Under the pieces are notes generated by a model, which saw only the letters and a list, made by a program, of their open reading frames with translations, made no database searches and had not been told where the DNA came from. A program made the position numbers and the translations under genes. Positions 32,604 to 62,367 of a stretch of 64,000 bases of DNA are shown one piece after another; the first letter of the stretch is position 1, and each line of letters begins with the position of its first letter. The stretch covers positions 1 to 64,000 of IMG/VR virus record IMGVR_UViG_3300017766_005733, one strand, 5' to 3'. Source of the stretch: a virus.

Positions 32604-33839
32604 TCAGCGCTTCAGCACCTGATCGGGATGCGTCAAGCCCATCTTCGCGCCAGCCTGATCGACGAGCCCCAAGGCGGTCTCAAGTGGCACCTTCTGGGCC
32701 GAGGGCACGAAGCCTTCGTCAGAGGGCTCAGTGAACTTACCCGTCACCGCGCGATGAACGGCATCGTGCATCACCGTGTTCAGTTCCTTGTGGAAGACTT
32801 CATCGGGGACGTGCAGCCCGATCTGCTCCGACAACTCGCGCTGCTTGTGTGCCGCCAGCCACTCCCAATGCACCGCCCGCTTGGCCTCGCGCATGCTGCG
32901 CTGAACCCCCAGCTTGCCAATGCGTCGGCCCTCGCCGTAGATTTTGTTGAGTTCCGGATACACCAAGGCGTGGGAAAGTTCATGGATCTGACGCCACGCA
33001 TCCGTGTAGTCACGATCACCAAAATCACCACCCGACGACGGCGTGGGGTCGTACACCATCAGGTGCTTCGTGTTGTAGTTGCGGTTGGCGAGGTCGGGTT
33101 TGCCGTACTGGCCACCGGCGTAGTAGGTCTGAAAGCCGTGCTGAGCCACAAGATCACGAACCGCCGGCAGCTTGCCGCGGTAGTCGTAGTGAAACAGGTC
33201 GCTCTTGGTCCCCGGATGAATGTCGCCGTAGGGCTTGGCGTAGTGGGCGTACGTCGAAACGCCGACACCCGCCGCCTGCTCGTTGGCTGGCTTCGGGGGT
33301 GCGTCCATGTGCGGGTGCGCGCCCGGCTTCGGCGGCGCCGGGGGATTGTCGGCCTTCGCCAGCCCCGCCATGTGCATGCGCGTGTGGCCGTCATGCCACT
33401 CGTAGGCGTGGGGGTGCGGGTAGCGTCCCCGCGGGGCCTCTGACTTCGTCAGGGCCTGCTCCTGCGGCAGATGGCCGTCAGCGCCATGGCCACGGAAGCG
33501 ATAGACGCCCTTCTGGGCCTGCAGGCGCTGGGTGACTTCCGGCGGCACGGGGCCAATGGGCTCGATACCCAGAGCCTTGAGGTGCTGCGAGTACAGAGCG
33601 CCGTGGCGCTGGGCCTCTTCGATGGCGCCCGCGGCCTTGGCGGTCTTGGCGCCCATCAGGTGATGGGCGGCGGCGTTCAGGTGCTGGTCACGGACGTACT
33701 CGCCATGGGCCTGCTCTTCGGCGGCCTCGCGCGTCAGGCCGCGGCCGAACTCCAAAACCGCCGCCCGATGATCGAGTTCAGCGGCGTGACCGCCGTCCAT
33801 GATACGACGCCCCTGCCACATCCCATCATTCTTTGCCAT
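32604..33839 (-). CDS. Polyprotein with C-terminal HExxH metallopeptidase-like domain
   Basis: IHELSHAL and a downstream HWEW; linkers ALTKSE and GLAKAD; start probably MAKNDG at 33839. Confidence 0.7.
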   Translation of the reverse strand: MAKNDGMWQGRRIMDGGHAAELDHRAAVLEFGRGLTREAAEEQAHGEYVRDQHLNAAAHHLMGAKTAKAAGAIEEAQRHGALYSQHLKALGIEPIGPVPPEVTQRLQAQKGVYRFRGHGADGHLPQEQALTKSEAPRGRYPHPHAYEWHDGHTRMHMAGLAKADNPPAPPKPGAHPHMDAPPKPANEQAAGVGVSTYAHYAKPYGDIHPGTKSDLFHYDYRGKLPAVRDLVAQHGFQTYYAGGQYGKPDLANRNYNTKHLMVYDPTPSSGGDFGDRDYTDAWRQIHELSHALVYPELNKIYGEGRRIGKLGVQRSMREAKRAVHWEWLAAHKQRELSEQIGLHVPDEVFHKELNTVMHDAVHRAVTGKFTEPSDEGFVPSAQKVPLETALGLVDQAGAKMGLTHPDQVLKR

Positions 33840-35283
33840 GATTTTGTCCCCGATAGACGGTGTCCAAGAAAGCGAAGATGGCGTCTTCCTTCCACTTGCC
33901 GCCAAAGGACAGCAGGTAGCTGGACTCCTTCTTCTCCAACTTCACGTCATTCGCCAGATCCCGGAAGCAGTAGCAGGCCTGAAACAGACCACCAGCCGAC
34001 AGCTGATGACCGTCACAGACGCCGCAGGCCGCCGTCAGCTGCTTCTCAGAGAGACGCAGCGACGGCAGCTTCATGGTAGCCTTGGGGGGCGGCGGCGGCT
34101 TGCGACCGCGCAGCTTCGGCGGCTGCACCTGCTGTCGACTCGGGGCATCGGGCTGAAGGGGGCCGGCCTGCTGCGTGGGTTTGTGCGCGGGCCCCGGCAT
34201 CTCAGCCGAGCCCTTTCCCGCCTTCTCCAGATCCGAGTGCAGCTGGTTGAAGTCGAAGTCGTGGGTGAAGATGCGGCCGTCGGGCAGGATCGTGTAGTAG
34301 TCCTCGGGCTTCTCGGCGTGCCACTTCGTGCCCTGACCCGGATGATGCTTACCGGTGTTCTCGCCGTTGACCATCAGCATCTTGTGATGCAGGCCATCGG
34401 AGTGAATCACGGATTCCTGCCCCAGATCACGAGCCAGCCCCTCGATCATCTTCGGGTTCTTGGGGTTGTAGACGATCAGGGAGTTCTCGGGGCGACCGTA
34501 GCTACCGATGGTGGGGTGAGCGTCTTCGCCGGCGTCGCGCAGGTACTGGACCGCCTGCTGGTTGCTGAGGTCCTTCGTCTTCGGGAAGAGGGGATTCTCG
34601 GCCGACATCAGGGTGTGGGGTGGCAGGGACTGCTCAGCCTTCTGCAGATCGAAGCCGACAAGTGACCGAACGGCATCCACCATCTTCTTTTCAAGAGTGG
34701 GGTAGCGGCGATCGGTCTCCATCGCCTGCAGCGTCAGCGACTTGTGGCCACCGGAAAGCGTCGCCTTGCCAACCTGCTGCCCCAAGCTGTTGACGGCATA
34801 CAGCAGCGTGAGTGGCGCCGGGCCGCTGACGTCGTATTCGTGCTCAAACGTGAACTCAGAGCGCTCAGACGCCATCTTGCGCAACGCCGCATGGGCGACG
34901 CGGGCGCCGACGAGGGCGTCAACGCTCTTTCCAAGGCGATACAGGTCGGCGTCCGACACGACCTCGGGCACGCGGCTGCGATCAAGGCCCATGACGACGC
35001 CAAGGGCCGCGGCGACGTGGAGCAGGGAGGCAGTGTCAAAGGAGTAGTCGACGTCGCCCAGCGTCATCGCGCCATGAAAGCCGGTGTCAGACTTCTGCAG
35101 CACCAGACGTCCGCCGACCCCCGGAATCTCGCCATCGTAGCCATGGCCGGCGAGGGCCAGCCAAGAATATAGGGCTCGTGGCACCATGGCGTTGTCAAGA
35201 TGCGGAAGGCGCTCCGCGGCCTTGCGAAGCGCCTTGGCGCCTTCAGGGCCGACGAGGGCCGTCAGGATCTGGTGTCGATTCAT
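33826..35283 (-). CDS. Polyprotein containing a T3 SAMase-like (SAM lyase) domain and a C-terminal Cys cluster
   Basis: LMSAENP / GSYGRPENS / LARDLGQESVI / YYTILPDGR, bracketed by DLQKAE and DLEKAG; CGVC..CYC at the C-terminus. Confidence 0.7.
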   Translation of the reverse strand: MNRHQILTALVGPEGAKALRKAAERLPHLDNAMVPRALYSWLALAGHGYDGEIPGVGGRLVLQKSDTGFHGAMTLGDVDYSFDTASLLHVAAALGVVMGLDRSRVPEVVSDADLYRLGKSVDALVGARVAHAALRKMASERSEFTFEHEYDVSGPAPLTLLYAVNSLGQQVGKATLSGGHKSLTLQAMETDRRYPTLEKKMVDAVRSLVGFDLQKAEQSLPPHTLMSAENPLFPKTKDLSNQQAVQYLRDAGEDAHPTIGSYGRPENSLIVYNPKNPKMIEGLARDLGQESVIHSDGLHHKMLMVNGENTGKHHPGQGTKWHAEKPEDYYTILPDGRIFTHDFDFNQLHSDLEKAGKGSAEMPGPAHKPTQQAGPLQPDAPSRQQVQPPKLRGRKPPPPPKATMKLPSLRLSEKQLTAACGVCDGHQLSAGGLFQACYCFRDLANDVKLEKKESSYLLSFGGKWKEDAIFAFLDTVYRGQNHGKE

Positions 35284-35289
35284 GCCACA

Positions 35290-36180
35290 CTACCTCGGGC
35301 TGAAGGTCCCCTGCCGAGGGGCAGGAGCCTGTCGGGGATTGGGGGGCGGAGACAGGGCCTCGCCCTGCACCGGAGCCGCCTCCGACTCAAACAGATATTC
35401 CCGTTGAATAGCCAGACTCATAGGCATCCGCTGGACGGCGCTGCTGCCATCCACCATCTCGCCACGCGCCACGCGCACCTCGTGAATGAGATGCGTGACG
35501 TACCAGTAGGGGCGATAGAGGTAGCGAACGGCGCAGACCTGCCCCTTTTCGCCACTGATGGGCGCAAGCGGACGACGACCGCTGCCCCAGACGATGGCAC
35601 CACGATCAATAGCGAAGTCTACGCCAAGGTGGTAGCGGTTGCCGTCGCTGTCCACGAGATCGATGACGAACTCGATGGGGAAGCTGACGCGATCTCGTCC
35701 CGACACCGAGCACTCAAAGAGTTCCCAGTTGGTGACGAAGATGCCGGGCTCCATCAGGTACAGGCGATCGTACTTCGTGGCGTAGAACGGCGTCTGGGTT
35801 TCGTTGTAGAACCGCGGCGTCGTCAGCTGAGCCGAGCCCTCATTGACGAAGCCCGGCGCCACCTGACGATCCGACGACTGGTTGCCAGTGAAGACGGCAG
35901 TGATCTGGCCGCCCAGCGTGTAGATGAAGCCATGGCTGCAGCCAGCGTGATTGTCGTGCGACTTCCGGATGTCGGTGGTCGACGTCATGCCGATGGGGCA
36001 GCGCATAGCGCGATAGTGCAGGAAATGGATGCCATGACCGGAAATCGCGACGTCGAAGGCATCGGTATCGAAAGAAACGAGATCGCGTGGAAAATCCGAT
36101 ACCAGAGCCACCGCCGGAGGCGGCTCAGACAGTACCTGCCCCCCGATCACGGGGTAGATGCTGGGCGTTTCAGCGGCCAT
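35290..36180 (-). CDS. Neck / head-closure protein
   Basis: RAMRCP...C..GFIY motif and VRYLYRP.W; position in the head-tail region. Confidence 0.65.
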   Translation of the reverse strand: MAAETPSIYPVIGGQVLSEPPPAVALVSDFPRDLVSFDTDAFDVAISGHGIHFLHYRAMRCPIGMTSTTDIRKSHDNHAGCSHGFIYTLGGQITAVFTGNQSSDRQVAPGFVNEGSAQLTTPRFYNETQTPFYATKYDRLYLMEPGIFVTNWELFECSVSGRDRVSFPIEFVIDLVDSDGNRYHLGVDFAIDRGAIVWGSGRRPLAPISGEKGQVCAVRYLYRPYWYVTHLIHEVRVARGEMVDGSSAVQRMPMSLAIQREYLFESEAAPVQGEALSPPPNPRQAPAPRQGTFSPR

Positions 36181-36528: not shown

Positions 36529-38580
36529 TCAGACGCCGGCCCAGAGGCCATTGACGAAGCCACCGAGGTCGCCGCCGGCTTCTTTGATCTGGCGCAGACG
36601 CATGATTTCAGGTCGAGGATCGATGTCAAAGGTCCTCAGAGCCTCGGCCATCTTCTCTTCCGAGAGAGACGCCAGCCAAGACTTCATGCGAATGGCAACG
36701 GACGCCGGCAAATCCGGCATCAGCGCCAGCTTCTGCTTCGGCGCAAGGGTGTTGAAGGTCTCACCCTGCGGCGTCATGAAGCGAAGGTAGAAGGGCGTGA
36801 AAGATTCCTGATCGTGGGCGGGATCGAAGTGGATGCCGGCGAAGGCCGATCCATGATCAATCAAATGGATCTCGCCCTGCGGATTCATGAGCATGTTGTG
36901 GCCATGCCGATCGCCGTTTCCCGCCACCCAGTCAAGGACCGACCACTGCCAAAGGCGGCCGCGGAGGCGGTAGGACTCCATGGCCGACAGCACCCGCCCC
37001 GGATCCTGTTCTCGGATGTCGATCAGAGGCTTGAACTCTTCTGGCAGGAAGCTGATGGCGGCGTAGAGTTTGTCGTCGACCTTGACCCACTCAGTGCGCG
37101 CGAGGTCGCCCGCAAGCCCCCAAGAGCGCGCAAGCTGCCAGAAGGCGCCTTCACGGGCACTCGGCGGCGCCGGATCGTCTTGGATGCCCTTGATGGGGCC
37201 GGCGCGGCCACTGCCCGGCTTCATGTACCAAGTACCGGCGGGGGTGTCGATGAAGAAGGAGCCAGCGCTGTGGCGACCATCGAGATGCGCTGGACGCGCA
37301 GAGAAGACATTGTCAGTCAGCAGCTTGGCGACGTCTTCGCCGCTGGCGTGCATGGCCTCGATCTTCGACCTCGGCGTCACAGGCAGACTGCTCTTGGCCT
37401 CCGCCTTCGTCAAAGACTCCGACTTCACCAGCGGCATCATCTCAACCGCCGCCTTCAGGATGCCTCGGTTCTCTGCGGTGTCGGGCCAGTTGATGGCAGC
37501 CAAGGCCGTGGCCACGGGATCGGCGTCGTTGAGCCACGCCAGATGCCGCAGGCTCAACAGTGCCTCTTCGTCGTCACGGGCCTTCTCGCCCGTCAGCGAC
37601 AGCGCCGCGCGCCAATGTGCATAGACGCCGGGAGGCAACGGCAACAGGAAGTCGCGGGCAACCTCCGACTTGTCAAGGCGAGCCGTCAACAGGCGGTCGC
37701 GCAGTTCCTCGGAGATGCGAGGCGGCAGGCTACGCATCATCGCCAGATGCCGCAGCCCCTCGCCGTCATGGAACGCGGCGTCCATCCACTGCTCAGCGTC
37801 TTCCTCCGTCAACGGCGCCGACAGCGGCACGCGCTCCCACGCCCCCTGCGGCAGCACCAGTTGCTCCCAGAACTGACGCCAGACGTCTTCGGGCATCAGC
37901 GCCTGCGCATCAGGGGAAGCAGAGGCGATGAACAGCAACAGCGGATTGTCCTGCGCCGGCAAGTCCGCCGGCGAGCGCTGCGCCAGCTGACGGTAGATCG
38001 TGGGGATGAAGTCAAGGGGCACAGCGGGCATCAAGGCATCGAGCAGATGCTGGCCGGCTTCAGGTGACTCAATGGCGAGTCGCTTCAAAAGCGCATCGCG
38101 GCCCTCTTTCGTGCGCAGCTGCTGGGCATTGTGCTCCGTAGCCGCGGGGTGGCCGACGATGTCGAGAAGGCGCTCCATCTTGACGTGACGCACTACGTCA
38201 CACCACGCCTTGCCGTCGTACAGCTGGTGAACGATATGGGGCGCCGGCAGATCATCGATGACGCGATCGGCGATGGCCTGCGAGACGTGGCGGGGGCCAA
38301 ACCCCGGCATCGTGGTAGCCAGTGCCCGCTCTCTTGCGTCATCGGCGGCCAGAGCCCGGTAGGCGTCGCGCTCTTCTTCGGGCGCTGGCTGGGAGGGAAC
38401 CTCGGCCGATGCCTTGTGGTTGAGGAAGAACTCGTGTGCCGTGGCGCGGATGGCGTTAGACGCCGCGGCGTTGCCGAGGGCATCGACATTGGCGATGGCG
38501 GCGGCGATCTGGTCGCGGGTGGCGCTGGGGCTCAGGATCAGCCTCTCAGCGGCCTTCAGTGTTGCGATGACGTTGCTCAT
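36529..38580 (-). CDS. Helical N-terminal region plus PI3/PI4-kinase/HipA-like kinase
   Basis: YMKP, REGAFWQLA, GNGDRHGHN and LIDHGSAF motifs following the linker LVKSESLTKAE. Confidence 0.85.
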   Translation of the reverse strand: MSNVIATLKAAERLILSPSATRDQIAAAIANVDALGNAAASNAIRATAHEFFLNHKASAEVPSQPAPEEERDAYRALAADDARERALATTMPGFGPRHVSQAIADRVIDDLPAPHIVHQLYDGKAWCDVVRHVKMERLLDIVGHPAATEHNAQQLRTKEGRDALLKRLAIESPEAGQHLLDALMPAVPLDFIPTIYRQLAQRSPADLPAQDNPLLLFIASASPDAQALMPEDVWRQFWEQLVLPQGAWERVPLSAPLTEEDAEQWMDAAFHDGEGLRHLAMMRSLPPRISEELRDRLLTARLDKSEVARDFLLPLPPGVYAHWRAALSLTGEKARDDEEALLSLRHLAWLNDADPVATALAAINWPDTAENRGILKAAVEMMPLVKSESLTKAEAKSSLPVTPRSKIEAMHASGEDVAKLLTDNVFSARPAHLDGRHSAGSFFIDTPAGTWYMKPGSGRAGPIKGIQDDPAPPSAREGAFWQLARSWGLAGDLARTEWVKVDDKLYAAISFLPEEFKPLIDIREQDPGRVLSAMESYRLRGRLWQWSVLDWVAGNGDRHGHNMLMNPQGEIHLIDHGSAFAGIHFDPAHDQESFTPFYLRFMTPQGETFNTLAPKQKLALMPDLPASVAIRMKSWLASLSEEKMAEALRTFDIDPRPEIMRLRQIKEAGGDLGGFVNGLWAGV

Positions 38581-41500
38581 GGTTCACCGTAGGACGCCGC
38601 GATGGCTTTGCCCTTCTGATACTCTTTCTGCGCCGTCTTCAGGTATTCGTCAAGATGTTTCGACGTGCCGTCGGAGATCAGCCAGTCTTTGAGGTTGTCG
38701 TGCAGCGACTCATAGCCCTTGTTCCAGCCCATGGCCGACTTGGGCTCCATGCCGTTGTTGATCATGATCAACGAGATCAGGTTGCCGAGACGCGCGTCTT
38801 CGACGCCGCCGCCGTGCGAAGGACTGCGCTTGGCCAACAGGGCGTGGTTGACCACGGCGTTGTTGAGGCGTTCGTTGTCGCCGGCGATCTCGCGACGATG
38901 AGCGAACCCCACAAGGCGAGCGAACTGCGCGCAGTTGTGGGTGTAGGCCATAGGCGTCTTGGCGTCCACCTCGCCGTCGTTCGTGAAGTGGAAGAACTGC
39001 TTGTCTTCTCGACGCTTCTGATGTTCTTCGGGCGTCGAGGCCGCCGGCATAAGATGATCGAAGGCGATGTCGTGGGAGTAGTGACGGGCGGGGATCTCCG
39101 TGGAGGCCTCTTCCATTGCCGCCTGTGGCCCGAGCCCCTTGCCGCGCCCCTCGTAGTCGTGGTCGCGATGCGAGACGCTGTGAAACAGTTCGTGCATCAC
39201 CACCGCCCATGAATCATGATGGGCCTCAGGGTTGAAGGCCGCGGTTCCGCCAAGGGATTCCATGAACTGGCCGGCGTGAGTCTCATGTACCCGGACGCCA
39301 CCACCATTTTTGGTCCCGTAATCGCCGAGGACGCCGGGGGGCAGCTGCTGGCTGGTGGCCCTGACAACCGACGTCAGGGGCAGCGAGTTGCCGCCTTCGT
39401 TGATGCCAGTGACGTGAGCCAGACCCCGACGCAGGCGCTGCAGATGAGGTGCGTTCTGGCCGTCATCAAAGGCCGCCCCCCACTTGTTCAGCGTCTCGCC
39501 TCGCACCTGCCCAAGAGCCTTGCTACGCAAGTCCCCCGGCGCCGCGGCCGCAGCCCGCATGGCCTTGTTGTGGGCCGCGTAGATGTCACTTGGCTGATGC
39601 GGGAACGAGAAGTGCTCGTGCTTGGGCACGAACGACGGGTCGATCTTCGGCGGCGGCCGATTCACGAAGTCCATCTTCTTCAGGCGCTCAGCTGCGGCGC
39701 CAGCGTGCGCGGACTCCTGCCAGAACTTGTCCTGACCGTAGGCGCGCACCACACTCACCGGCTGCTTCGCGAGATGCGTCGGGTCTTTGCTCTTCAGCGG
39801 CTTCCAGAACTCGTGGTTGCCCGTGGGCTCGCCGACGGCCTTCTCGGCCTTCAGCAGATACGAGTACGGGCCGGCGCGTTCGTCGTAGTCCTGTCCCGTG
39901 GTCACATGTGACTTGTACTCGGGCTCGTAGCCGAGGCCGTGCTTTGCCGCCAACTGCATGTGGGTACGAGAAGCGGCCGTGGAATGCTCTTCGCCGGCGA
40001 CGCTGCGCAGCCGCAAGTGATTCTTTGCGTGCGACAGCAGGGCCTCATACATCGCCACGCCCAGCCGCTGCTTCCTCAGACCTCGGTGCAGGAAGGTGTT
40101 GGTGACGTTGAGCGTCTTCTTGTCGACGCGACCAGTGACTGTACCCACCTGCTTGCCCTCGACGTTGTAGAGTCGGGCCGTGGGCATAGGGTCGCCGGTT
40201 TCATCCGGAACATCGCTGACGCGCAGCGACAGCCCCTGACTTCGATGCTCAGGCGTCAAGACGTGGTTGTAGTCGAAGCTGTTGGCACCGACCTTCTGCC
40301 CCACGGGAATGTCCTTGAGCGCCATCTTGCGCAGGAACGATTCGCGGTATGGGCCGTAGCTATCAAGGGCCTCTTTGGCGCTGGGCTCGTGATCGATGTC
40401 GCCGGCGACAGAGTAGAGTCTCGTCATCGGGCGACCGCTGAAGTCCTTCTCCTCGATGAAGCGCTTGTTGGGACTGTCTAGTGCCTCGTCGAGGCTTGCG
40501 ATTGGAAAGCCATTCAGCTTCGCCGATGCCACGGGGTTTTCGTTCCACGGCTCTGATGTCTGCGCGTGGTGCTGCTCTGGCGTCTCGGGGGCACCCTTGG
40601 CGCCAACGACGCCGGGCATCGCAAGGATCTTGTCCCAGACCTTGTTGGCCGTCGGCGAAACCGACTTGTCGCTTCGCATCTTTCCGTGATACCGCAGCAT
40701 GCGCTGATACAGCAGGGTGCCGTATCCGGAGCCTTGAGCGCTGCCATGGGTTGCTGTTTCGCCGTGCTCGACGACGCCATTGCTGTCGACGCTGGCCGCC
40801 GAGGAGGAAACAGGGAACCCAAAAGGCTCCTTGTCGTAAGACAGCATGTGCATCACGCTGTATCCGCCGTGGTCGTATGGTGTGTCCTTGACGACATGGT
40901 GGTACAGGGGCTTCTCGCGGCTGCCGTGGTCTTCCCCAGCCGGGCGCTGGCTGTGAGGCACCCGATACGTCTCGATGCTCTGCAGGCCACCCTCGTACTG
41001 GCTGGTGCGATGAGGCCTCATGCCATGCTGCACGGCCTCGTAGGCCATCTTGTGCAGGTAGTCAGACTTCTTGAGGGTGCCGGGCTTGATCTTGACCTTC
41101 GCCGGCGCCTTCATGCCCTGCATCGTCTTCATGTACTCTTTGACGTAACCCGACTTGGCGATCTGCTGAGGCGTGGCGTTGATGGCCGCACCGCGACCCC
41201 AGCGCCAGCCGTAGGCCGTGCGCTCAGGCGTCTTCAGCTTGTCCTGCAGCCACTTCCAGTGATCGGAGGCGACCTCGTTGTAGAACTTGTGGTCGCTCTG
41301 GAACTTGGCGGTGAAAGAGTCCTGATCCAATCCCGGATACTTCGCCTGCAGGCCTTTGCTGTTCTGGTACTGGTCGTAGCCCGACACGGGCTTGAAGCCA
41401 ACGGCGCCGAAGGCCGTGTGGAAGGGCCCCTTGGAATGCGCGGCGTGCTTGATGTTCTTGCCAAACGACGACTCCAGCTGCGCCACCGGATGCAGACCCG

Positions 41501-43052
41501 GATGCAGGCCCTCGGGCGTCCATTGACTCGACTCTGCAGCGGGAGCGGGAGCAGAAATGGGAGCAGCGACAGCCGGCGCAACGACAGGCGCCAGCTTGGC
41601 CTCAGGCGCACGGCCATGGAGCCCCAAGCCCAGCCCACCGAGGCCGATGGCGGCCGCCAGCGCCTTCTCTTTCAGGCCCTTTTCAAGGTGCTGGTGGGTG
41701 TCACCGAGACGCAGCGTCGGCATGGCATCCGCCACACGCTGCACGTCCTCTTCCGTGGCCGGGCTTTCGTAGTCGGGCAGGCGATGATGATGGATGTCAA
41801 CAACGGCAGTCGGCTGATGGGTGTGGATCTGCTCGTGATTGAGCCAGCTACCCAGCCAGTCGCCGGCTGCGTGGTCGCCATAGGCGTCGTGGATCGTGTC
41901 GCCAATGCGGGCGCCGACGTGATGGATGTCGTCACCCATCTGGATCCCCACCAGCCTCGCCTCAGGGTGCTTCTTCTGGATGGCCCTTGCCAGAAGGCTG
42001 CAGCCGCCGGCGTGCCACGTCGATCCCGCGGCGGCCGTCTGGTCAAGGACGCCAAAACTCTCGTCGGAGCCACACCACTCGGCGATTCCAGAGCCCTTTG
42101 CGAGGGCCTCAGACTTCATGATGTTAGAGTGAAGCGACGGATTGGCGTTGAAAACACTCTTGATCTGATGGGGGTAGAAAGCAACCCAAGTCCCATCGCC
42201 GAAGTCGACTCCGTCGTGGCCCTTGTTCCTCAGCCCATCGAAGAAGGCGGCCTGCCACTTGGCATAGTTGGGGGCCATCCGGTGACTTTCAACGTCTTGC
42301 GGCTGAAAGACATAGGGGTTCTTGATCGACAAATGGACGGGCATGACGCGAGGGGCGTTGTTGCGATCAACGATCTGACCGCCGGAGAACACTGGTCCGC
42401 GGCTGTCGTTGTCGACGGCATACATCGACGCTTCTTTCGGATCATTCGTAAACCAAGCGCCCCGCTTGCCGATCTTGAAAGAAGAAAAGTCGACGTCTTT
42501 TGACGTCCCATGGTAGAGTTTCAGGGGCTTGCCTTGCGGATCCTTGACGTGCGACCCCGAAAACCACTCTTGGAACTCGGGGGTGTCGTGCTTCGCCAGT
42601 CCGTCGGCTTGCGATTCCCCATCCTGCATCCCCAGCAGCTGCAGCGTCACGTTGCGCGGCGAATGCAGATTGTCGGCGATCTCCTTCGGCAGCCCCTCAC
42701 TGACATCGACCCAGCGCCACTCACTGCACTCGTTGTCGGGGTCTTCTTCCGTCGTGACGCGCGGCTTTTCTTCGTCGTGGAACGTCACCTGATAGGCATG
42801 GACAAGGATCTTGCGGCCACGGCTTTCGACGACGTCAGAGCCGAGGGATTCCAGCACCTCGTTCCCCGTCTTCAGGCCCGTCTCTTCCCGGAGTTCACGG
42901 ACGGCGCCTTCGTAGGCCTCTTCGCCGTCCTCCAAATGGCCGCCGGGCAGCGTCCAACGACCGTTGTCGCGCCGCCGCCCCCAAAGCATGTCACCGGCGC
43001 CATCAAAGACGGCAATAGAAGCAACCTCGACGGCATCCTTGGTATCAGCCAT
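38577..43052 (-). CDS. Polyvalent protein: Nudix + ART-like + papain-like + TM/lysozyme-like + GNAT + GNAT + HExxH peptidase
   Basis: GGHLEDGEEAYEGAVRELREETG; LYHGT..WFT..YA..L.IKNP..GHDG..QIKS; GGC..LA..HHV..DAYG; LESS; QGSGYG; RKQRLG; MHELFH..EEASTE. Confidence 0.85.
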   Translation of the reverse strand: MADTKDAVEVASIAVFDGAGDMLWGRRRDNGRWTLPGGHLEDGEEAYEGAVRELREETGLKTGNEVLESLGSDVVESRGRKILVHAYQVTFHDEEKPRVTTEEDPDNECSEWRWVDVSEGLPKEIADNLHSPRNVTLQLLGMQDGESQADGLAKHDTPEFQEWFSGSHVKDPQGKPLKLYHGTSKDVDFSSFKIGKRGAWFTNDPKEASMYAVDNDSRGPVFSGGQIVDRNNAPRVMPVHLSIKNPYVFQPQDVESHRMAPNYAKWQAAFFDGLRNKGHDGVDFGDGTWVAFYPHQIKSVFNANPSLHSNIMKSEALAKGSGIAEWCGSDESFGVLDQTAAAGSTWHAGGCSLLARAIQKKHPEARLVGIQMGDDIHHVGARIGDTIHDAYGDHAAGDWLGSWLNHEQIHTHQPTAVVDIHHHRLPDYESPATEEDVQRVADAMPTLRLGDTHQHLEKGLKEKALAAAIGLGGLGLGLHGRAPEAKLAPVVAPAVAAPISAPAPAAESSQWTPEGLHPGLHPVAQLESSFGKNIKHAAHSKGPFHTAFGAVGFKPVSGYDQYQNSKGLQAKYPGLDQDSFTAKFQSDHKFYNEVASDHWKWLQDKLKTPERTAYGWRWGRGAAINATPQQIAKSGYVKEYMKTMQGMKAPAKVKIKPGTLKKSDYLHKMAYEAVQHGMRPHRTSQYEGGLQSIETYRVPHSQRPAGEDHGSREKPLYHHVVKDTPYDHGGYSVMHMLSYDKEPFGFPVSSSAASVDSNGVVEHGETATHGSAQGSGYGTLLYQRMLRYHGKMRSDKSVSPTANKVWDKILAMPGVVGAKGAPETPEQHHAQTSEPWNENPVASAKLNGFPIASLDEALDSPNKRFIEEKDFSGRPMTRLYSVAGDIDHEPSAKEALDSYGPYRESFLRKMALKDIPVGQKVGANSFDYNHVLTPEHRSQGLSLRVSDVPDETGDPMPTARLYNVEGKQVGTVTGRVDKKTLNVTNTFLHRGLRKQRLGVAMYEALLSHAKNHLRLRSVAGEEHSTAASRTHMQLAAKHGLGYEPEYKSHVTTGQDYDERAGPYSYLLKAEKAVGEPTGNHEFWKPLKSKDPTHLAKQPVSVVRAYGQDKFWQESAHAGAAAERLKKMDFVNRPPPKIDPSFVPKHEHFSFPHQPSDIYAAHNKAMRAAAAAPGDLRSKALGQVRGETLNKWGAAFDDGQNAPHLQRLRRGLAHVTGINEGGNSLPLTSVVRATSQQLPPGVLGDYGTKNGGGVRVHETHAGQFMESLGGTAAFNPEAHHDSWAVVMHELFHSVSHRDHDYEGRGKGLGPQAAMEEASTEIPARHYSHDIAFDHLMPAASTPEEHQKRREDKQFFHFTNDGEVDAKTPMAYTHNCAQFARLVGFAHRREIAGDNERLNNAVVNHALLAKRSPSHGGGVEDARLGNLISLIMINNGMEPKSAMGWNKGYESLHDNLKDWLISDGTSKHLDEYLKTAQKEYQKGKAIAASYGEP

Positions 43053-45809: not shown

Positions 45810-46538
45810 TCAATCCTCCGTGAGCGCCATAACCAGCGACGGCGACCAGTGACTAAAGTAACGCGGCATCTCGGGCTTGATGACCTGCCACATCTTGGTG
45901 ACGAGGATGCGGAACTCCTTGTCAGCGACTTCGGCGTCACGACGCGGGAACATCTGAAGGAACGCCGCGGCGTTGCCACTCCACGTCAGCCGGGTTTCGA
46001 TGCCGTTCGGCAGGATGCGAGCCGCAGCGCCCTGAGCCGTCTTCCGATCATGCCCCTTCGCCACCATGTGCTCGACGACGCCCTTGTAGGCATCGCGCCA
46101 AGCCATATCAAACTTGGTCAGCTTCTCGTGCAACTCCGGTGATAGGTCGGAGAGATCCGGGTGCATCATCACCCGCGACTCGGCCTCCGAAACGTAGCGG
46201 GTGCTGCGCTGGCTTGGGCTGAAGCCGACGTGGTGGCGGACCAACTCGTGGCTCAGGTTGCGGGTGACGCCCGTGATCCAGAGAACGAAGTGGCTGTGGT
46301 AGAGCACGTTGGGATGGTAGTGCTCAAGGATGTTGGCGTGAAAGTCGTCGCTGTTACGGCCGCGACCGAACGAGTCGTAGCAGCCGCGGCCGGCGAACTC
46401 AGCGATCTTCTCGCCCTCGGTCCCCTGCATCTGATCGCTGCGGCATCGACGGAACTCCTCGATGTCATCACCGACGAAAGATGGGCGCGCGACAAGTCGC
46501 ACGGAGATGCCGGAAGACTCAACCTGTTGAAGACTCAT
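45810..46538 (-). CDS. thyX: Flavin-dependent thymidylate synthase
   Basis: AGRGCYDS, HPNVLYH, SHELVRHH..SPSQRSTRY and AARILPN..T motifs; AGGAG SD before the ATG at 46538. Confidence 0.9.
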   Translation of the reverse strand: MSLQQVESSGISVRLVARPSFVGDDIEEFRRCRSDQMQGTEGEKIAEFAGRGCYDSFGRGRNSDDFHANILEHYHPNVLYHSHFVLWITGVTRNLSHELVRHHVGFSPSQRSTRYVSEAESRVMMHPDLSDLSPELHEKLTKFDMAWRDAYKGVVEHMVAKGHDRKTAQGAAARILPNGIETRLTWSGNAAAFLQMFPRRDAEVADKEFRILVTKMWQVIKPEMPRYFSHWSPSLVMALTED

Positions 46539-46558
46539 GTGCTGGCTCCTTCCCTTCC

Positions 46559-47044
46559 TCAATACACGATTGCGGGGTTGGCGGCAAGCCATTTCTTGGC
46601 AGCCGCCAGCACAGGCAGCCCAAAGCCACAGGCGTTGGCGGCGGCGATGTAGCCGGGACGCTCTAGCACTCCCCAGCCGCGAGGGTTACGGCACCCGATC
46701 TCAAAGAACGGCGGATCGGCGTAGATGCGTTGGCCCAGATCGTCATCGGGGTACGAGATCCAGCATCGAGCCGGGGCGATCTCGGGCGTCGCGAAGCGGT
46801 TGTCGAAGCTGATCTCTACGTCGAGATCGGTGCGAGCGTTGATGGACATGCTGCAGAAGTACAGGCGCGTGCCTTCCTCGTAGACGCGAATGTTCTTGTA
46901 GGCCTTCAGCGCCTGCCGCAGGCAGGCAAAAGACTCAAACTTGCCGTCATTCCACAGCCACTTCATGGCCTCTGGACCCGGATACGACGACAGGTTGCAG
47001 CAATGGTCGACTTCAGCGCTCAGGTACGGGTCCTTCACTCTCAT
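46559..47044 (-). CDS. Hypothetical protein (MRVKDPYL...)
   Basis: ATGA coupling with the upstream stop; GGAGG SD. Confidence 0.6.
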   Translation of the reverse strand: MRVKDPYLSAEVDHCCNLSSYPGPEAMKWLWNDGKFESFACLRQALKAYKNIRVYEEGTRLYFCSMSINARTDLDVEISFDNRFATPEIAPARCWISYPDDDLGQRIYADPPFFEIGCRNPRGWGVLERPGYIAAANACGFGLPVLAAAKKWLAANPAIVY

Positions 47045-47897: not shown

Positions 47898-48199
47898 TCC
47901 TCAGTGGTGTTGAAGGCCCAGACATGGTTGGTGGCGTACTCGACGATGAACGAAGGCGCTGGCCCGTACCAAGTCTGGCTGTGCTTGACGGCCAGAATCG
48001 CGGCCTCAAAGTCGGAGAACCCCATGCCCTCGGGCAGCGTCGGGGCATAGACAAAGAAGCGCGGAACGGTGCGAGCGAAGCGATCCATGCCAAAGGCGAC
48101 AACGGGCAGGGTCGGCCGGTCTGACTTTGGCAGAAGGACTTCTGCGTGAGTAATAGGAGCCATGCCCATTGGCGGAACCATCCAGTTCATGAACGTCAT
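47894..48199 (-). CDS. Hypothetical protein (MTFMNW...)
   Basis: ATGA coupling with the Hef-like gene stop. Confidence 0.55.
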   Translation of the reverse strand: MTFMNWMVPPMGMAPITHAEVLLPKSDRPTLPVVAFGMDRFARTVPRFFVYAPTLPEGMGFSDFEAAILAVKHSQTWYGPAPSFIVEYATNHVWAFNTTEE

Positions 48200-49605
48200 G
48201 AAGCGACGATAGCCGATGACGATGAAGGTGTCAAGTCCATCTCCCAGCGAACAAGACCGCAGTCCCAGATACGCGCATAGCCGCGAGCCGCCATCTCCTC
48301 GTGCTCCGTTACCTCGTCGCCCACCCCCAAGGCCGCCTTGCGAAACTTCGATCGATGCCAACGATGGCGATCTGATCCCTTTTTGATGTACCAGTATCCC
48401 GGTGGAAGAACCTCAGCCGCGATAAACCCTGAGCGCTCGTAAATGCCGCCACTAGACCAACGACGATCAGAGAAGGTGACGATGCGCGTGGGGCGCAGGA
48501 CGGCGATGGCGCCACTCAACAGCCGCTGAAGGCCACCGGCGACATGAAGTCGTTCCGTCAAAGCGTAGCGAGAGAGTTCCCAGACGCCATCGCCGCGATG
48601 ACGAAAACCAGCGACAGCCACCAGTTCGCCGCTATGCCTCAGCCCCCAACAACGAGTCTCGGCTCCCGCGGCCTGCAGGTGATGAGCGTCGAAGAACTCA
48701 GCCGCTGTCTTGATGTCGACCTCGGCCACCTCGCACTTCCGCGCTCCAACTCGCTGACCCGGCAAACCAGAAAGCGCCTGAAGGTAGGCGCAGCAAATGG
48801 CACGACGCTGAATCCACTCGTCGGAAAACACCGTCACCAGCCTTATGCCGAGGCGCTCACAGGCCTGCAGCTTCTCCAGATGCCGCCTACGAGCCTTCTC
48901 TGGCGTATGGATCTCGCTGTGATAATGAAGACCGCAGTATTCTATGGCCAAAGACAGGGACGGCACCCATATGTCAATCTCAAGCGGAGAAATGACGTGG
49001 CGCACGTTCTCAAAGACCTCCAACCCTGCTTGGCGAAGGAGATCGGCGATCTCCCCCTGAGCGTGGCTCTTCACACACCCACAAGAACGCACCTTCATGT
49101 ACAAGAAATCAAAAGAACGGACATGGAACAGTCTGCCGCAGTGACAGTGCAACTGCAGGCCATCACGTCCCAGCGGGATAGGGGCGTCTGCGTCTAGGTC
49201 ACACCGCATCCCCAGTCGCTGCGCCACGACATGGACGTCACGCCCCCGGTACTTGGTCCGGTCTTCTTCAGGAATGTCCCTCCAACGCCTTTTTGAAGCC
49301 TTGGATACTTCCGCTCGCAGCGTCTCGTCTCGCCATGCCGTTCGGACGGAGGCAGCACGGCGCTCTAAGACCTCTGGGGTAAGAGACTTTCGCATCGTCT
49401 CCCAAGCATCGGGATCCTTTGCGAGGCGGCCGGCTCGTGCATTTTCTTGCCTCTTGTCTGGGGGCAAGGAAAACCGGGCGCGAGTCTGGATGTTCTTGAT
49501 CTGTGAAACCGTGAGCCCAAGGCGTTGGGCGACGGCCTCGCGCGTCATGCCCTCGGCCCGCAACCTCACGACTTCGTCGACCAGATCCTGAGAGAAAGCC
49601 TTCAT
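48196..49605 (-). mobile_element. Hef-like free-standing homing endonuclease (HTH + Vsr/PD-(D/E)XK + GNAT-like C-terminus)
   Basis: N-terminal HTH; SCGC; LEIDIWVP..AIEYCGLHYH..FSDEW; GARKC; SDRRWSSG..Y; RIWDCG. Confidence 0.8.
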
Positions 49606-49650
49606 GCCACACCCCATTACCCCAGAGGCATAGCATAGATTCAACCGCGT

Positions 49651-49692
49651 AAAAAAAGCAAGATGGAGGCCGTTACCAGCCTCCATCTTGCT
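49651..49692 (-). terminator. Intrinsic terminator after the major capsid gene
   Basis: 14-bp stem AGCAAGATGGAGGC/GCCTCCATCTTGCT with a T-run on the minus strand. Confidence 0.85.
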
Positions 49693-49716: not shown

Positions 49717-51126
49717 TCAGCGCAGGTTGTCGATCAGCGCGTTCTTGCGGGGCTGCATGACCGCCAGCGTCGCGAAGCGGAAGTGCGCCTCGGGGATGCT
49801 GAGGTCGGCAACCGCCAGCTTCAGGCGGCTGTACGGCGCCAGTTCCTTGATCTCCATCGTATCGCCCTGAAGCAGGAAGCCGGTGACGAAGCCGGGCTGC
49901 TTGTTGCCGATGTCGATGAAGCTGGTGGTGCCGGTGGCCGCGGCCACGACGCGACCGATGAACTTCGCCGACGCCGCCGTGCCGCCAGCGGCGGAACGGT
50001 AGACGTTGAGGAAGCGGGTCGTGCCCGAGCCCGAGGGCGTGATCACCAGCGTGACGCCGTGACCGGCGGTCGCGATGGTGGCCGACGACGACAGCGAGGC
50101 CGCCGACTCACCGACTTCGTTACCAGCGGTAACGTAGTAGGTGTAGACCTCACCAGCGAGGAACGGCGTCGTGGCGCCCGAGATGGCACCCGGCGTCGCC
50201 GACGTGAGGGTCGGAGCCGACGGGCCGTCGGGACGCGACGGAGACGGACGGGTCTTGCCGCTGAGGAAGCGCGAGGCCTCCACGGCGACCGTCGCGTTCG
50301 ACGTCCACTGCTTGCGGAGGTCCGCGCCCGTCGCGCCCTGCGGCGAGCCGGCGAGGATGATGCGCTCCTTGCCGAAGACGATGCGGTTGTAGACGCTGAG
50401 GACGCGCGGGTCGACGACCAGCTTGTCCGCATTGCCCATGTGCATCGCCGAACGAACCGACGCTTCCTCGATCAGGTCCTGCGAGAGCGCGCCGCCACCG
50501 GGGACAACGCACGACTCATCGGCACCGAACTCGGCGAAGTAGCGGTCCTGCGCCGTCGCCTGATTGTCCGACTGACGGATCTGCACGTCCACGCCGATCA
50601 TGTTCGCCATGACGCCGGGGATCGCGAGCGGGTTGCCGTCGAAGACACCAGCGTTGCTGAAGTCGGCGCGACCACGGAAGAGGTCGAACTCGACGTCGGC
50701 AGCGATGATCTTCGCAGCGTCGGCAGCCGCACGGTCATCCGCAGCCACACCGTCGACCGTCGACACGAGCGTCGAGGCGATGGTCACGCGGCGGTGGTGG
50801 CTGTAGTAGCACATCGGCACGACCACACGCACGAAGTCGCTGGTCTTCTCGGCGCCGAGGTTGCCTTCCAGCTGCGCCGAACCACCGAAGTGGCCGTACG
50901 ACAGCTGACGGTCGAACTGAGCGAGGGTCGACTTGACGGCCTTCGACTTCAGCATCGACTGCAGCTTGATGTGGCTGTCGTCGAAGGTGACGTTCTCAAG
51001 GACCGGCGACAGGTCTTCGACCTGAAGCGCGGCGCCCTGAACGAGGGACGAGGGGGCAGCGTTGTAGGAGCCGGCTTCAAGGGCCTTGACCAGCTTCTCC
51101 AGCTGCTCGATGGAACTCGGGTTCAT
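49717..51126 (-). CDS. Major capsid protein
   Basis: 469 aa; VKALEAG...GAALQVEDL N-terminus like Herelleviridae-type MCPs; strongest codon bias; GGAGG SD; terminator downstream. Confidence 0.9.
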   Translation of the reverse strand: MNPSSIEQLEKLVKALEAGSYNAAPSSLVQGAALQVEDLSPVLENVTFDDSHIKLQSMLKSKAVKSTLAQFDRQLSYGHFGGSAQLEGNLGAEKTSDFVRVVVPMCYYSHHRRVTIASTLVSTVDGVAADDRAAADAAKIIAADVEFDLFRGRADFSNAGVFDGNPLAIPGVMANMIGVDVQIRQSDNQATAQDRYFAEFGADESCVVPGGGALSQDLIEEASVRSAMHMGNADKLVVDPRVLSVYNRIVFGKERIILAGSPQGATGADLRKQWTSNATVAVEASRFLSGKTRPSPSRPDGPSAPTLTSATPGAISGATTPFLAGEVYTYYVTAGNEVGESAASLSSSATIATAGHGVTLVITPSGSGTTRFLNVYRSAAGGTAASAKFIGRVVAAATGTTSFIDIGNKQPGFVTGFLLQGDTMEIKELAPYSRLKLAVADLSIPEAHFRFATLAVMQPRKNALIDNLR

Positions 51127-51182: not shown

Positions 51183-52028
51183 TCACTTCAGCAGATGGGA
51201 CAACTTGCTCGCATCGACGTTGCCGCCGAGGAAGAAGTCGTTGATGAGTTCGCGATCGCTCTTGGTCAGCGACGCATCGCGGACCTTGGAGCGCAGCTTC
51301 GCGGCCATCTCCGACTTCGACAGCTTCGGCGCCACGGCGGCAGCCGCGGGCGTCAGCATGGTTTCGGCCTTGCGCATGGGCTTGGAGACGACGGCCTCAA
51401 AGGCGCCGATCACTCGCTCCAACATCTTGCCCTGCTCCTCAAGGCTCTTCTTCAGGGCGGCGACCTCGGTGGTCTCCGACTTCGCGATGGGCTTCATCTG
51501 CCCACCGTTGCCGTCGGCCTTCATCTCGCCCTTCATCGCCGGCGGCGGAGCCGCGGGAGCCGATGCCTCAGGGGCGCCGGCACCAGCAGCAGGACCACCA
51601 GCGCCCATGCCGCCACCCATCGCCGCAGCGAGGGCAGCCTGAGCCGCTTCCGCGTGCATCTTCAGTTCGTCAAGCGGCAGCTTGGCGTACTCAGACTGCA
51701 GCGCAGCCGGGTCCATGGCGCCACCAGCGTCGGGACCCTCGCCACCCTCGTCACCGGGGGCAGCCGGGTCGTCGGCCGGCGACGCGGAGGCCTCAGCGCC
51801 ATTGGCGCTTTCCTCCGACGGACCACCGTCGTCGTCTTCCGCGGCGGGGGCCGGGGCCGAAGCCTCGCCCGCGTCGTCGGCATCCATCTTCGACTTCTCG
51901 TCATCACCCGCGGCCTTGGCCAGCTTCTCAGCCCGGTCCTTCTCCGACTTCGCGATGTTGACGAGGACATTCTGGACATCGGCCAGAATGGCATCGATGT
52001 CGACGTTCGTGAGATCAGGGGTAGACAT
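51183..52028 (-). CDS. Probable scaffold protein
   Basis: Acidic low-complexity/coiled-coil protein just upstream of the MCP; many x-K-S-E motifs; AAGGAGG SD before the ATG at 52028. Confidence 0.75.
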   Translation of the reverse strand: MSTPDLTNVDIDAILADVQNVLVNIAKSEKDRAEKLAKAAGDDEKSKMDADDAGEASAPAPAAEDDDGGPSEESANGAEASASPADDPAAPGDEGGEGPDAGGAMDPAALQSEYAKLPLDELKMHAEAAQAALAAAMGGGMGAGGPAAGAGAPEASAPAAPPPAMKGEMKADGNGGQMKPIAKSETTEVAALKKSLEEQGKMLERVIGAFEAVVSKPMRKAETMLTPAAAAVAPKLSKSEMAAKLRSKVRDASLTKSDRELINDFFLGGNVDASKLSHLLK

Positions 52029-52067
52029 GGTGTAGTCCTCCTTGTTGAGTTTTGAGGAATACAACCA

Positions 52068-60165: not shown

Positions 60166-62367
60166 CTACTCCCCGATGTCTTCATCGGCTGATAGCGCGC
60201 GGCCGATCTCGGCCAGAGCGGCGCGAGAGTCATCCTCCCACGTCTTCTGGAAGCGATCGACGATGGCTCGATGCTTGGCCAGCAGCTTGCGCTTGGACGG
60301 CGACAGCGTGGCTTCCGACTTTAGCATCTCCGAAGCCTGATCGAGGCCGCGCGTCAGGTCACCGCCAGCCTGCTCAGCCGCCTGCTGAGACTGCTGCTGC
60401 GAGGACTCGGCGGTCGCCGCCTGCTGGGAGGCCTCTGCCTGCTGAGCCTCACCCTTGCCCGGCTGCGGACCCCCACCGCCGCCACCACCTCCACCGCCAC
60501 CTCCGCCATCCTGCGGCGGCTGCCCACCCTGCTGCTGGGCCGCCTGCTCCTGCATCTGCTGCTGTTGCTGCATCTGCTGAACCTGCATCTGCAGCTGCTG
60601 CCACTGGAACCAGAAGGGGTCGCGAACGTAAGCCAGCTTGGGGTCCTTGGCCGCACCCTTTTGACCGAAGAAGTGCTCCTTGATCTGGCCCACCGTCAGG
60701 TACTTGTCGACGACCGCCTGCCACTGGGCGTTGAAGGGGAAGTCGCCGCCAAGTTCCTCGGGGATCTCTTCCTTCTCGACCTTGTTCAGGACCTCGTTGT
60801 AGGTCATGTGCAGCGGCGCGTCCTGCTGCAGTCGGATCGATTCCTTCTCGGCCGTCTCAGCATCCAAGCCCATCAACTGGATTTCGCACTTGCCAACGAG
60901 GTTGGGCGCGATCAGGGGCAGAAGCTGGGCGTTGATGAAGTCCTGCCACGCCAAGAGCAGTGGGCGCAAGCCGACGTCGCGGTGAGCAATCATCAGGTAC
61001 TCCTGATTGCTCTCCGACAGCGCCTGATTGTTGGTACCGCGGCTGAGGTGGGCGTAGCCGGGTAGTTCTTCCGGCGACATCTGGAAGGCCGACAAGATGA
61101 TGCGGGCCGTCATGTCGCTCAGGTACTGGAACTCCATGTCGCGCTGACTGGCATCCGTCGAAACCCACTCAATGTTTTCCTCGACGCCAACGCCCAGCAC
61201 CGGCACGCGCCAGCTGTTCTGCACGCTGTTGATGGCGGCGTTGAACTGCTGGCGGATGTCGTTGATCATCGAGTCATCGACGTCATCGGACTTGATGATG
61301 AGGATGCCGCGGCTGGCGCGGCCGCTCTGGAAGTACAGCTTGTTGTGGGTCGTGATGTTGATATGCGTCGTGACAGCGGCAATGACCGTGTCGAGGGGCG
61401 ACAACGGATAGCCGCGGAACTCAACGTCGGCGACGGGGTAGAAGTTGTAGACGAGGCATTCCTCGGCAGTGAACGACTGTCGCGGCTGCCCTTCCAGAAC
61501 CTGAATCCAAGCGATGTCTTCCGGCGTCACCGTGTTGTTGGGTTCGTGCTCCAGCTTCTTGCGCTTGATGCGCTCAAGCAGCCTCGCCGCCGTCTCACGC
61601 AACTCCACCGCCATCTGGTTCATTGGCACGGAACGGTAGATGGTGCCGGCGTCGATGGGACGGAAGGAGTGGAACTCGCGACGTCCCGTGTGGACGTTGT
61701 AGACCCAAATGATTTCGGTGGCCACGCGCCCCAGCACCACCGCATTCTTCGTCGAGACCGTCAGGTACTGGCTGAAGGTCATCTGCTCTTGATCCGACCA
61801 GCCCTTCGTCTGACCGCAAGATCGCAGCAGTTCGGACGCTCGCTTGATCTCTTCGTCAAGAGCCCTCTGCTCTTCGGGCTCCAGTGACTCCTCGACTCCC
61901 GGAATCGGGACAATCCCAAAGCCCACGCCGTGGCGATCACGACGAGGACGACCAAAGGAGCCGATGTGGTTGCCGCGGGTGTTGACGATCGAGGCAACGA
62001 GGCTGTCCTGAATGGCAATCCGCTTCAGGATGCTGTCGGGGATGCCACGCAGCTTCTGCTGCCACAGCCCCTGATTGCTGCCGACCTGACTCGGGTCCAC
62101 CTCAAAGGCCAGACGCTCGATGGACGTCTCGCCGCCGTTGAGGAGGTTCATCAGGCTCTTGGCAAGACGCTGATGGCCAACGACGGGCCCGGCGTCGGGG
62201 ACCGTCGGGAGAGAGTCCAACTTCTCGACCGTCAGCACAGGCTGCGGCATCGATGGGTCGGTGAAACGCACCTGCCGCCGACTCTTGCTGAGCCCCTCGG
62301 TCTTTGGCGTCGCGGACTTGATGAGGGCCTGAAAGTACGCGGAAGTGGGATTACTGGGAGTTGTCAC
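60166..62367 (-). CDS. Portal protein
   Basis: IDAGTI, YPLSPL, N..YF..G...GIL, RDMEFQY, AFQMSPEEL and GLRPLL motifs; Q/G-rich C-terminal tail. Confidence 0.9.
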   Translation of the reverse strand: MTTPSNPTSAYFQALIKSATPKTEGLSKSRRQVRFTDPSMPQPVLTVEKLDSLPTVPDAGPVVGHQRLAKSLMNLLNGGETSIERLAFEVDPSQVGSNQGLWQQKLRGIPDSILKRIAIQDSLVASIVNTRGNHIGSFGRPRRDRHGVGFGIVPIPGVEESLEPEEQRALDEEIKRASELLRSCGQTKGWSDQEQMTFSQYLTVSTKNAVVLGRVATEIIWVYNVHTGRREFHSFRPIDAGTIYRSVPMNQMAVELRETAARLLERIKRKKLEHEPNNTVTPEDIAWIQVLEGQPRQSFTAEECLVYNFYPVADVEFRGYPLSPLDTVIAAVTTHINITTHNKLYFQSGRASRGILIIKSDDVDDSMINDIRQQFNAAINSVQNSWRVPVLGVGVEENIEWVSTDASQRDMEFQYLSDMTARIILSAFQMSPEELPGYAHLSRGTNNQALSESNQEYLMIAHRDVGLRPLLLAWQDFINAQLLPLIAPNLVGKCEIQLMGLDAETAEKESIRLQQDAPLHMTYNEVLNKVEKEEIPEELGGDFPFNAQWQAVVDKYLTVGQIKEHFFGQKGAAKDPKLAYVRDPFWFQWQQLQMQVQQMQQQQQMQEQAAQQQGGQPPQDGGGGGGGGGGGGGPQPGKGEAQQAEASQQAATAESSQQQSQQAAEQAGGDLTRGLDQASEMLKSEATLSPSKRKLLAKHRAIVDRFQKTWEDDSRAALAEIGRALSADEDIGE

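Follow-up and report, generated by a model that had tools for sequence, protein, structure and literature searches.

S-adenosylmethionine (SAM) lyases are familiar as counter-defence enzymes that are expressed early. The lyase of phage T3, gp0.3 (PDB 7OCK, 8BB1; Pfam family PF23780), is a stand-alone protein made from the first gene expressed, whereas the T3-like domain described here is internal to a 485-residue protein (P0001) encoded in a block of structural genes. The gene lies in a 64-kb window, the first part of the 131,625-base IMG/VR virus record IMGVR_UViG_3300017766_005733, which is rated 80% complete; the G+C content of the window is 60-66%. In the published description of the T3-type fold, about nine antiparallel strands make up a barrel-like sheet that has two helices on its outside (PMC8406200). 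Among SAM lyases, only Gly56, Glu69 and Gln104 in the numbering of Svi3-3 (PDB 6ZM9/6ZNB) are reported to be strictly conserved; Tyr58 packs on the substrate, and the E69Q substitution in Svi3-3, at the position equivalent to T3 E68, nearly abolishes activity (PMC7877911). For a SAM-AMP (SAM-adenosine monophosphate) lyase compared with Svi3-3, structural conservation is reported for the Glu and the Gln alone, and the T-loop between Tyr and Glu shapes the substrate pocket in enzymes of both specificities (PMC12255297).

Two further systems are relevant to the position of this gene. The domain was originally predicted by a model from the letters of the window alone, with the remark that SAM lyases are normally early genes. 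That remark has to be qualified, since a SAM hydrolase, ORF6 of Synechococcus phage S-CREM2, was reported in 2023 to be present in the virion proteome, with the suggestion that the enzyme enters the host on infection and shields the phage DNA from restriction (PMC10665884). The concept of a virion-borne SAM hydrolase is therefore not new. S-CREM2 is a T4-like cyanophage, and a tblastn search of 50,697 phage records gave no sequence link between it and the subfamily found here; the available sections of the S-CREM2 paper describe neither a polyvalent cassette nor a K-[A/S] border motif (PMC10665884). Polyvalent proteins combine unrelated enzyme domains in one polypeptide encoded beside virion genes, and are predicted to be delivered with the DNA (PMC5512222). 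The main text of that paper contains no occurrence of SAMase, S-adenosylmethionine, AdoMet, SAM hydrolase or DUF3293, its full list of 131 domains being in external or supplementary files (PMC5512222).

As judged from sequence and structural model, residues ~221-345 of P0001 form a divergent member of the T3-type SAM lyase/DUF3293 superfamily, with predicted activity. The original prediction had placed a T3 SAMase-like domain at 34235-34635 without naming a strand. The span is real and lies on the minus strand, where it corresponds to residues 217-350 of the 485-residue open reading frame at 33826-35283. A plus-strand reading of the same span was rejected, as that frame is full of stop codons. 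The sequence blocks on which the prediction relied were all found in P0001 and in the order given: DLQKAE (residues 212-217), TLMSAENP, GSYGRPENSLIV, LARDLGQESVIH, DYYTILPDGRIF and DLEKAG (residues 351-356).

To compare structures we used an excised domain (P0007) comprising residues 205-365 (161 residues). An AlphaFold2 model built from a 20-row alignment had a mean predicted local distance difference test score (pLDDT) of 90.1 and a predicted template modelling score (pTM) of 0.81, and contained eight strands and two helices, an architecture that agrees with the T3-type fold. Both motif-bearing ends of the model were of low confidence. When the model was searched against the PDB with Foldseek, no row reached E<=0.001, and the first four rows were all SAM lyases: 8bb1_E (E 6.8e-3, TM-score 0.50), 7ock_K, 7ock_J and 6zm9. 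The structural comparison called for by the original prediction thus returned the SAM lyase fold, with the T3 enzyme as best match, rather than no match. Svi3-3 was a much weaker match than T3 (93 residues aligned, root-mean-square deviation 6.2), and the extra C-terminal strands of the window domain are of the T3 type, unlike Svi3-3 and the SAM-AMP lyases, which are PII-like trimers. Sequence identity to T3 gp0.3 is 11-14%. Among viral predicted structures (BFVD), 20 rows fell within E 0.001; the top matches were a 1477-residue 'ART-PolyVal-like domain-containing protein' and a 1231-residue 'Structural protein' of a Flavobacterium phage, on which a literature search found nothing relevant. 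Annotated SAM hydrolases of Autographiviridae were also among the matches, and those of Vibrio and Pectobacterium podoviruses stood at E 0.003-0.01. Known SAM lyases are oligomers: the T3 enzyme is a dimer, and Svi3-3 is a trimer whose active sites lie where subunits meet. For the window domain, a complex prediction with two copies of domain residues 14-150 scored 0.00 against a mark of 0.42, and was counted neither for nor against dimerisation. The model of the whole 485-residue protein, made with six close orthologues, had a pLDDT of 51.7 and was too poor for structure searching.

Sequence profiles point to the same family. The sole Pfam match of the excised domain was PF23780 (S-AdoMet_lyase), at E 0.029 over profile positions 14-130 of 133. 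Three relatives with 43-45% identity to the window domain exceeded the curated PF23780 cut-off of 28 bits: P0020 (36.1 bits), P0016 (30.8 bits) and P0023 (28.7 bits), which match the window domain itself with E 9.7e-29, 1.1e-30 and 3.6e-28 respectively. When the excised domain and 19 short relatives were scored together, PF23780 matched 16 of these 20 aligned members at E<=1 (best E 6.2e-9) and DUF3293 (PF11697) matched eight (best E 1.2e-6). Of 10 relatives scored, three, all of them stand-alone proteins, were above the DUF3293 cut-off of 25 bits (P0130, 29.4; P0136, 27.6; P0105, 27.9 bits). The family therefore bridges PF23780 and DUF3293, its members exceeding the cut-offs of both. The window domain differs from these relatives in giving no match to DUF3293 even at E<=10, and the DUF3293 profile covers only the first 73 positions. 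An exhaustive HMMER search of 1.84 billion cluster representatives detected 503 proteins at E<=0.001, of which 278 reached E<=1e-10 and nine E<=1e-30, so that the family comprises at least 503 clusters at 50% identity; the matches always cover query residues ~17-146, in proteins of 136-2043 residues. The nearest ESM Atlas clusters are viral and mix DUF3293 with PF23780 (scores 0.87-0.89, taken as a lead only). Among PDB sequences, neither the domain nor its profile picked up anything beyond noise (superoxide dismutase, E 1.4; antibody light chain, E 2).

To place the active-site residues, 45 relatives of T3 gene 0.3 were collected, all belonging to PF23780, and 11 were aligned for profile comparison. 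Aligning the domain profile with the T3-clade profile in hhalign gave 116 columns, collinear across the whole domain, at E 0.0073 with a probability of only 5%. In this weak register SAENP is paired with SAFRS, G260-S-Y262 with T3 G55-C-Y57, E266 with E68, G-Q289-E-S with E-Q94-D-C, H300 with H105 and YTILPDGRIF with FTIDEFGRRW; these are exactly the four blocks that the original prediction had matched to T3 gp0.3, and in the same order. The Svi3-3 counterparts of G260, Y262, E266 and Q289 are G56, Y58, E69 and Q104, and Svi3-3 reads Q104-E105-S106 at the last of these. By this weak alignment the domain contains the Gly-x-Tyr, the critical Glu and the B-loop Gln of SAM lyases. Conservation was scored in 151 domain copies, consisting of the query and 150 listed relatives, after 14 weaker or partial hits of 165 had been dropped. 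G288 was kept in all 151, Q289 in 150, Y262 in 147, E266 and H300 in 146 each, and G260 in 143. The T3-like identity of the domain is accordingly upheld by the fold match, by Pfam signals across the family and by the conserved G-x-Y, E and Q, with its own copy under the Pfam cut-off. Chance resemblance of the four motifs was rejected, because the fold and family evidence exclude it.

Several results weigh against this assignment. The window's own domain scores 14.7 bits with PF23780, under the cut-off, and for that reason the residue register rests on the weak alignment together with collinearity of the fold. Some members obtain higher scores with DUF3293, a family without known function, than with PF23780. 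A profile search of the whole record with PF23780 and PF11697 gave no matches, though hmmscan sees PF23780 in the domain, and HMMER searches between a profile of the 151 copies and one of the close T3 clade found nothing significant in either direction. Alignment of the domain with the single T3 sequence extended over 23 columns at E 0.32. Finally, the loop between Tyr and Glu has four residues here, against 11 in both T3 (Y57-E68) and Svi3-3 (Y58-E69), so that the loop is seven residues shorter than the T-loop of about 11 residues in those SAM lyases.

A domain with the same fold and lyase chemistry could act on another compound, either SAM-AMP, as an anti-type III CRISPR (clustered regularly interspaced short palindromic repeats) activity, or another sulfonium or nucleotide compound. 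The SAM lyase family is reported to include enzymes that cleave SAM-AMP and not SAM, one of which is phage-encoded and has an additional domain at its N terminus, and the two specificities have only the Glu and Gln structurally in common (PMC12255297); the loop that distinguishes the pockets is the one remodelled in the window domain. The best structural match by far, however, is the T3 SAM lyase and not the PII-like trimeric type that includes the SAM-AMP lyases, and the shorter loop would leave no obvious room for the AMP-stacking residues W64 and F84. We therefore regard a different substrate as unlikely, and SAM as the expected one.

The original prediction also described the domain as precisely bracketed by a linker motif, and this was borne out by conservation in orthologues, by a shuffle test and by enrichment in the flanks of relatives. 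All six of the six orthologues have L-x-K-[A/N/S]-E ahead of the domain and L-x-K-A-G behind it. In the general form h-x-K-[A/S]-[E/D/G/N], searched as [LIMFV]-x-K-[AS]-[EDGN], the motif occurred 27 times in 16 proteins of the module (19006-62367, minus strand), against 5.8 +/- 2.4 times when residues were shuffled; none of 500 shuffles reached 27. Five copies are in a 293-residue putative scaffold protein (51183-52064), six in a 1569-residue protein and four in a 1491-residue protein, one of these directly after its ART-PolyVal domain. Copies are concentrated in the multi-enzyme proteins, the putative scaffold and the C terminus of the portal protein, and no copy was found in two tail-fibre-like proteins of ~1500 residues. 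Among the relatives, motif density per residue was 0.0104 in the 25 residues upstream of the domain and 0.0126 in the 25 residues downstream, compared with 0.0002 within the domain and 0.0024 over the remainder of these proteins, a 4-5 fold enrichment in the flanks. The motif was carried by 21 of the 72 relatives with an upstream flank and by 43 of the 113 with a downstream flank; a looser form was carried by 48 and 78 of these respectively.

Internal head and ejection proteins of T4-like and phiKZ-like phages are processed at short consensus motifs. The border motif has the appearance of a head-protease site that marks proteins inside the capsid. A literature search for a lysine-type prohead protease consensus gave only phages related to T4, SPN3US or phiKZ, and for this reason cleavage at K-[A/S] is a step that we infer.

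The setting of P0001 agrees with the structural module named in the original prediction: the gene lies in a co-oriented block of head and tail genes on the minus strand. The block includes the portal gene (60166-62367), the major head protein gene (49717-51126) and genes for virion proteins, among them two proteins of ~1500 residues matching tail-fibre or virion families. Encoded on the same strand are the 1569-residue protein, with weak signals of a head protease, ParB_N, kinase and DUF6321; the 1491-residue protein, with NUDIX, ART-PolyVal and GNAT domains; a GGDEF protein; a 683-residue kinase-like protein; and a 611-residue protein with DUF5661 and GNAT. These neighbours share the repertoire of polyvalent proteins (ART-PolyVal, NUDIX, GNAT, kinase, GGDEF, ParB_N). 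Polyvalent proteins have at least two unrelated domains and are phage-encoded beside similar proteins, and this arrangement is what was found here. Unlike typical polyvalent proteins, P0001 is short (485 residues) and has only one recognisable domain. The domain also departs from the stand-alone early gene of T3, being inside a 485-residue protein whose ATG is 6 nucleotides past the stop codon of an upstream gene (35290-36180) assigned by PHROGs as 'virion structural protein'. At the other end, the P0001 gene extends over the probable start codon (ATG, 33839) of the gene that follows.

Most copies of the domain are parts of long proteins with several domains, and the position of the domain varies widely among proteins. 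In the copies from 150 relatives it is N-terminal in 83, internal in 25 and C-terminal in 21, and the remaining 21 are in proteins of 230 residues or fewer; the domain is thus a shuffled cassette, found in proteins of up to 2043 residues. In a tblastn search with P0001 and P0011 against 50,697 phage records only Myxococcus phage Mx1 was matched, where the domain lies in a hypothetical coding sequence (37603-39282, WNM70344.1) directly upstream of the tail sheath gene; no virion proteome of Mx1 was found in the literature. A tblastn search of 72,556 plasmids with the domain gave no match. In one IMG/VR locus (L004) a 665-residue protein beginning with the domain is encoded after portal and head-protease-like genes. 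In another (L005) the order is major head protein, homing endonuclease, phrog_772 and then a protein of at least 837 residues beginning with the domain. The gene following phrog_772 opens with the SAM-lyase-like domain at L005:7977-10487 and with NUDIX/ART-PolyVal at 38577-43052 of the window, so cassettes have been swapped at the same locus between the two. All four contexts examined, in the window, Mx1, L004 and L005, are structural modules with head or tail genes.

Some other features of these blocks were recorded. A homing/HNH endonuclease gene (phrog_3339) directly follows the major head protein gene both in the window (48196-49686, minus strand; E 7e-77) and in L005 (4378-6105; E 2e-73), and a thymidylate-synthase-like open reading frame (phrog_85, E 1.5e-30) lies within the structural block at 45810-46592, also on the minus strand.

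The reading that we hold, with slightly better than even confidence, is that P0001 carries a T3-type SAM lyase domain in a protein that is made late, packaged, freed by a protease and injected, and that cleaves SAM. As the domain is built into a multi-domain protein encoded among head genes, the enzyme may reach the next host ready-made. The steps that we infer are as follows. The 485-residue protein, a putative polyprotein, would be made late and loaded into the prohead, where the head maturation protease would cut at the border motif to free a domain of ~15 kDa. Once freed, this domain would be delivered into the next host along with the DNA and would split SAM into methylthioadenosine and homoserine lactone, and the loss of SAM would starve type I/III restriction, bacteriophage exclusion (BREX) and host methylation before phage gene expression. 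A search with three DNA methyltransferase Pfam families, as a coarse first pass, gave no match in the 131-kb record (80% complete), which would fit a SAM-depleting phage, as weak evidence. The same whole-record search missed the PF23780 match visible to hmmscan, so its negatives for divergent domains, methyltransferases included, should be taken with care.

A real SAM lyase might instead be made late without being packaged, and act in the producing cell, for example by preventing methylation of progeny DNA or by turning off the SAM metabolism of the host late in infection. The position of the gene shows only that it is co-oriented with structural genes, and the 21 of 150 relatives' copies in proteins of 230 residues or fewer have no obvious targeting part. 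Set against this, fusions of the domain to others characteristic of injected polyvalent proteins recur, its gene lies between portal or protease genes and tail genes, the border motif is common to the putative scaffold (five copies) and the portal C terminus, and the SAM hydrolase of S-CREM2 is virion-associated (PMC10665884). Action confined to the producing cell consequently seems improbable to us, and packaging and injection remain the favoured course.

The T3 SAMase has a second, non-catalytic function, in which it binds and inhibits MetK in a SAMase-MetK filament, and the contacting residues on the E. coli side are reported to be specific to enteric bacteria (PMC8406200), so MetK inhibition is unlikely to be general. 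That the window domain is likewise a non-catalytic relative of the DUF3293 type, serving as a binding or structural module such as an inhibitor of host SAM synthetase or a mere spacer within a head protein, would accord with its score under the Pfam cut-off and with a DUF3293 family that has no known function and that our search found nowhere in the literature, but it is quite improbable, since 95-99% of the 151 copies, in proteins only 35-50% identical, retain the polar residues that line the SAM site, a pattern more in keeping with a conserved site for a small molecule than with a binding surface or a spacer.

The three segments of P0001, separated by linkers, are listed with their features in Table 1. 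Neither the whole protein (Pfam at E<=0.01, and PHROGs) nor its N-terminal region (Pfam and PHROGs) was assigned to a family, and Pfam recognised none in the C-terminal domain.

Table 1. Features of the P0001 gene and its product, in window coordinates
Feature	Position	Strand	Basis or remark
Gene for the 485-residue multi-domain protein P0001	33826..35283	-	translation of the open reading frame
N-terminal region, residues 1-212	34648..35283	-	one more motif copy, LQKSD at 62-66
Upstream linker motif L213-Q-K-A-E217	34633..34647	-	flexible, of low confidence in the model; immediately ahead of the first strand
T3-type SAM lyase-like domain core, residues 221-345	34249..34623	-	8 strands and 2 helices in the model
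G260-S-Y262-G-R-P-E266-N-S268	34480..34506	-	G-x-Y and E aligned to T3 G55-C-Y57 and E68
G288-Q289-E290-S291	34411..34422	-	Q aligned to T3 Q94 and Svi3-3 Q104
H300	34384..34386	-	aligned to H105, invariant in the T3 family
Downstream linker motif L352-E-K-A-G356	34216..34230	-	~7 residues beyond the last strand
Pro/Gln-rich linker, residues 357-405	34069..34215	-	sequence
C-terminal domain, residues 406-485	33829..34068	-	four invariant Cys: C420, C423, C437, C439

Three observations concern sequences next to the domain in this and related proteins. The next gene downstream (32604-33839, minus strand) encodes a protein with PHPHAYEWHDGH followed by GLAKAD, and relative P0019 has a very similar HPHGYDWHDSH...VEKAEG stretch after its SAM-lyase-like domain; a small His-rich module may travel with the domain. 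The metagenomic protein P0020 (953 residues) has two repeats after its N-terminal domain, each opening with KGSLQRRNPFNP and containing HRG...SWTP...E patterns. Pfam made no call on these repeats, whose patterns we take to resemble the R-S-E motifs of ADP-ribosyltransferases. P0203 (702 residues), from the 90% cluster of orthologue P0003, has ~220 residues of unrelated sequence beyond the end of the 485-residue form, and is possibly a fusion or a frameshift variant of the downstream region.

Our literature search found no prior account of this subfamily, of a SAM lyase cassette in polyvalent proteins, of a link between DUF3293 and SAM lyases or of the border motif, and no paper naming DUF3293, PF11697 or PF23780. 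The domain represents a distinct, very widespread and unannotated SAM lyase-like subfamily, nearly all listed copies of which are called 'hypothetical'. Within polyvalent head proteins the subfamily is shuffled as a cassette, and it links DUF3293 to the SAM lyases. The recurring border motif is new as well, and could be a processing site. More tentatively, and as a proposal that may well prove too broad, SAM lyases of this large, almost wholly uncultured, truncated-T-loop subfamily would in general be one interchangeable cassette of a capsid cargo system, in which enzyme domains lined up between border-motif sites are freed by the head protease and injected, here to destroy SAM, and so disable type I/III restriction and BREX, before phage transcription. 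If the border motif is a processing site, the cargo repertoire of such phages could be read from sequence. If the enzyme is pre-made and injected, it would act before phage transcription, at the time when the outcome of infection hinges on restriction and BREX.

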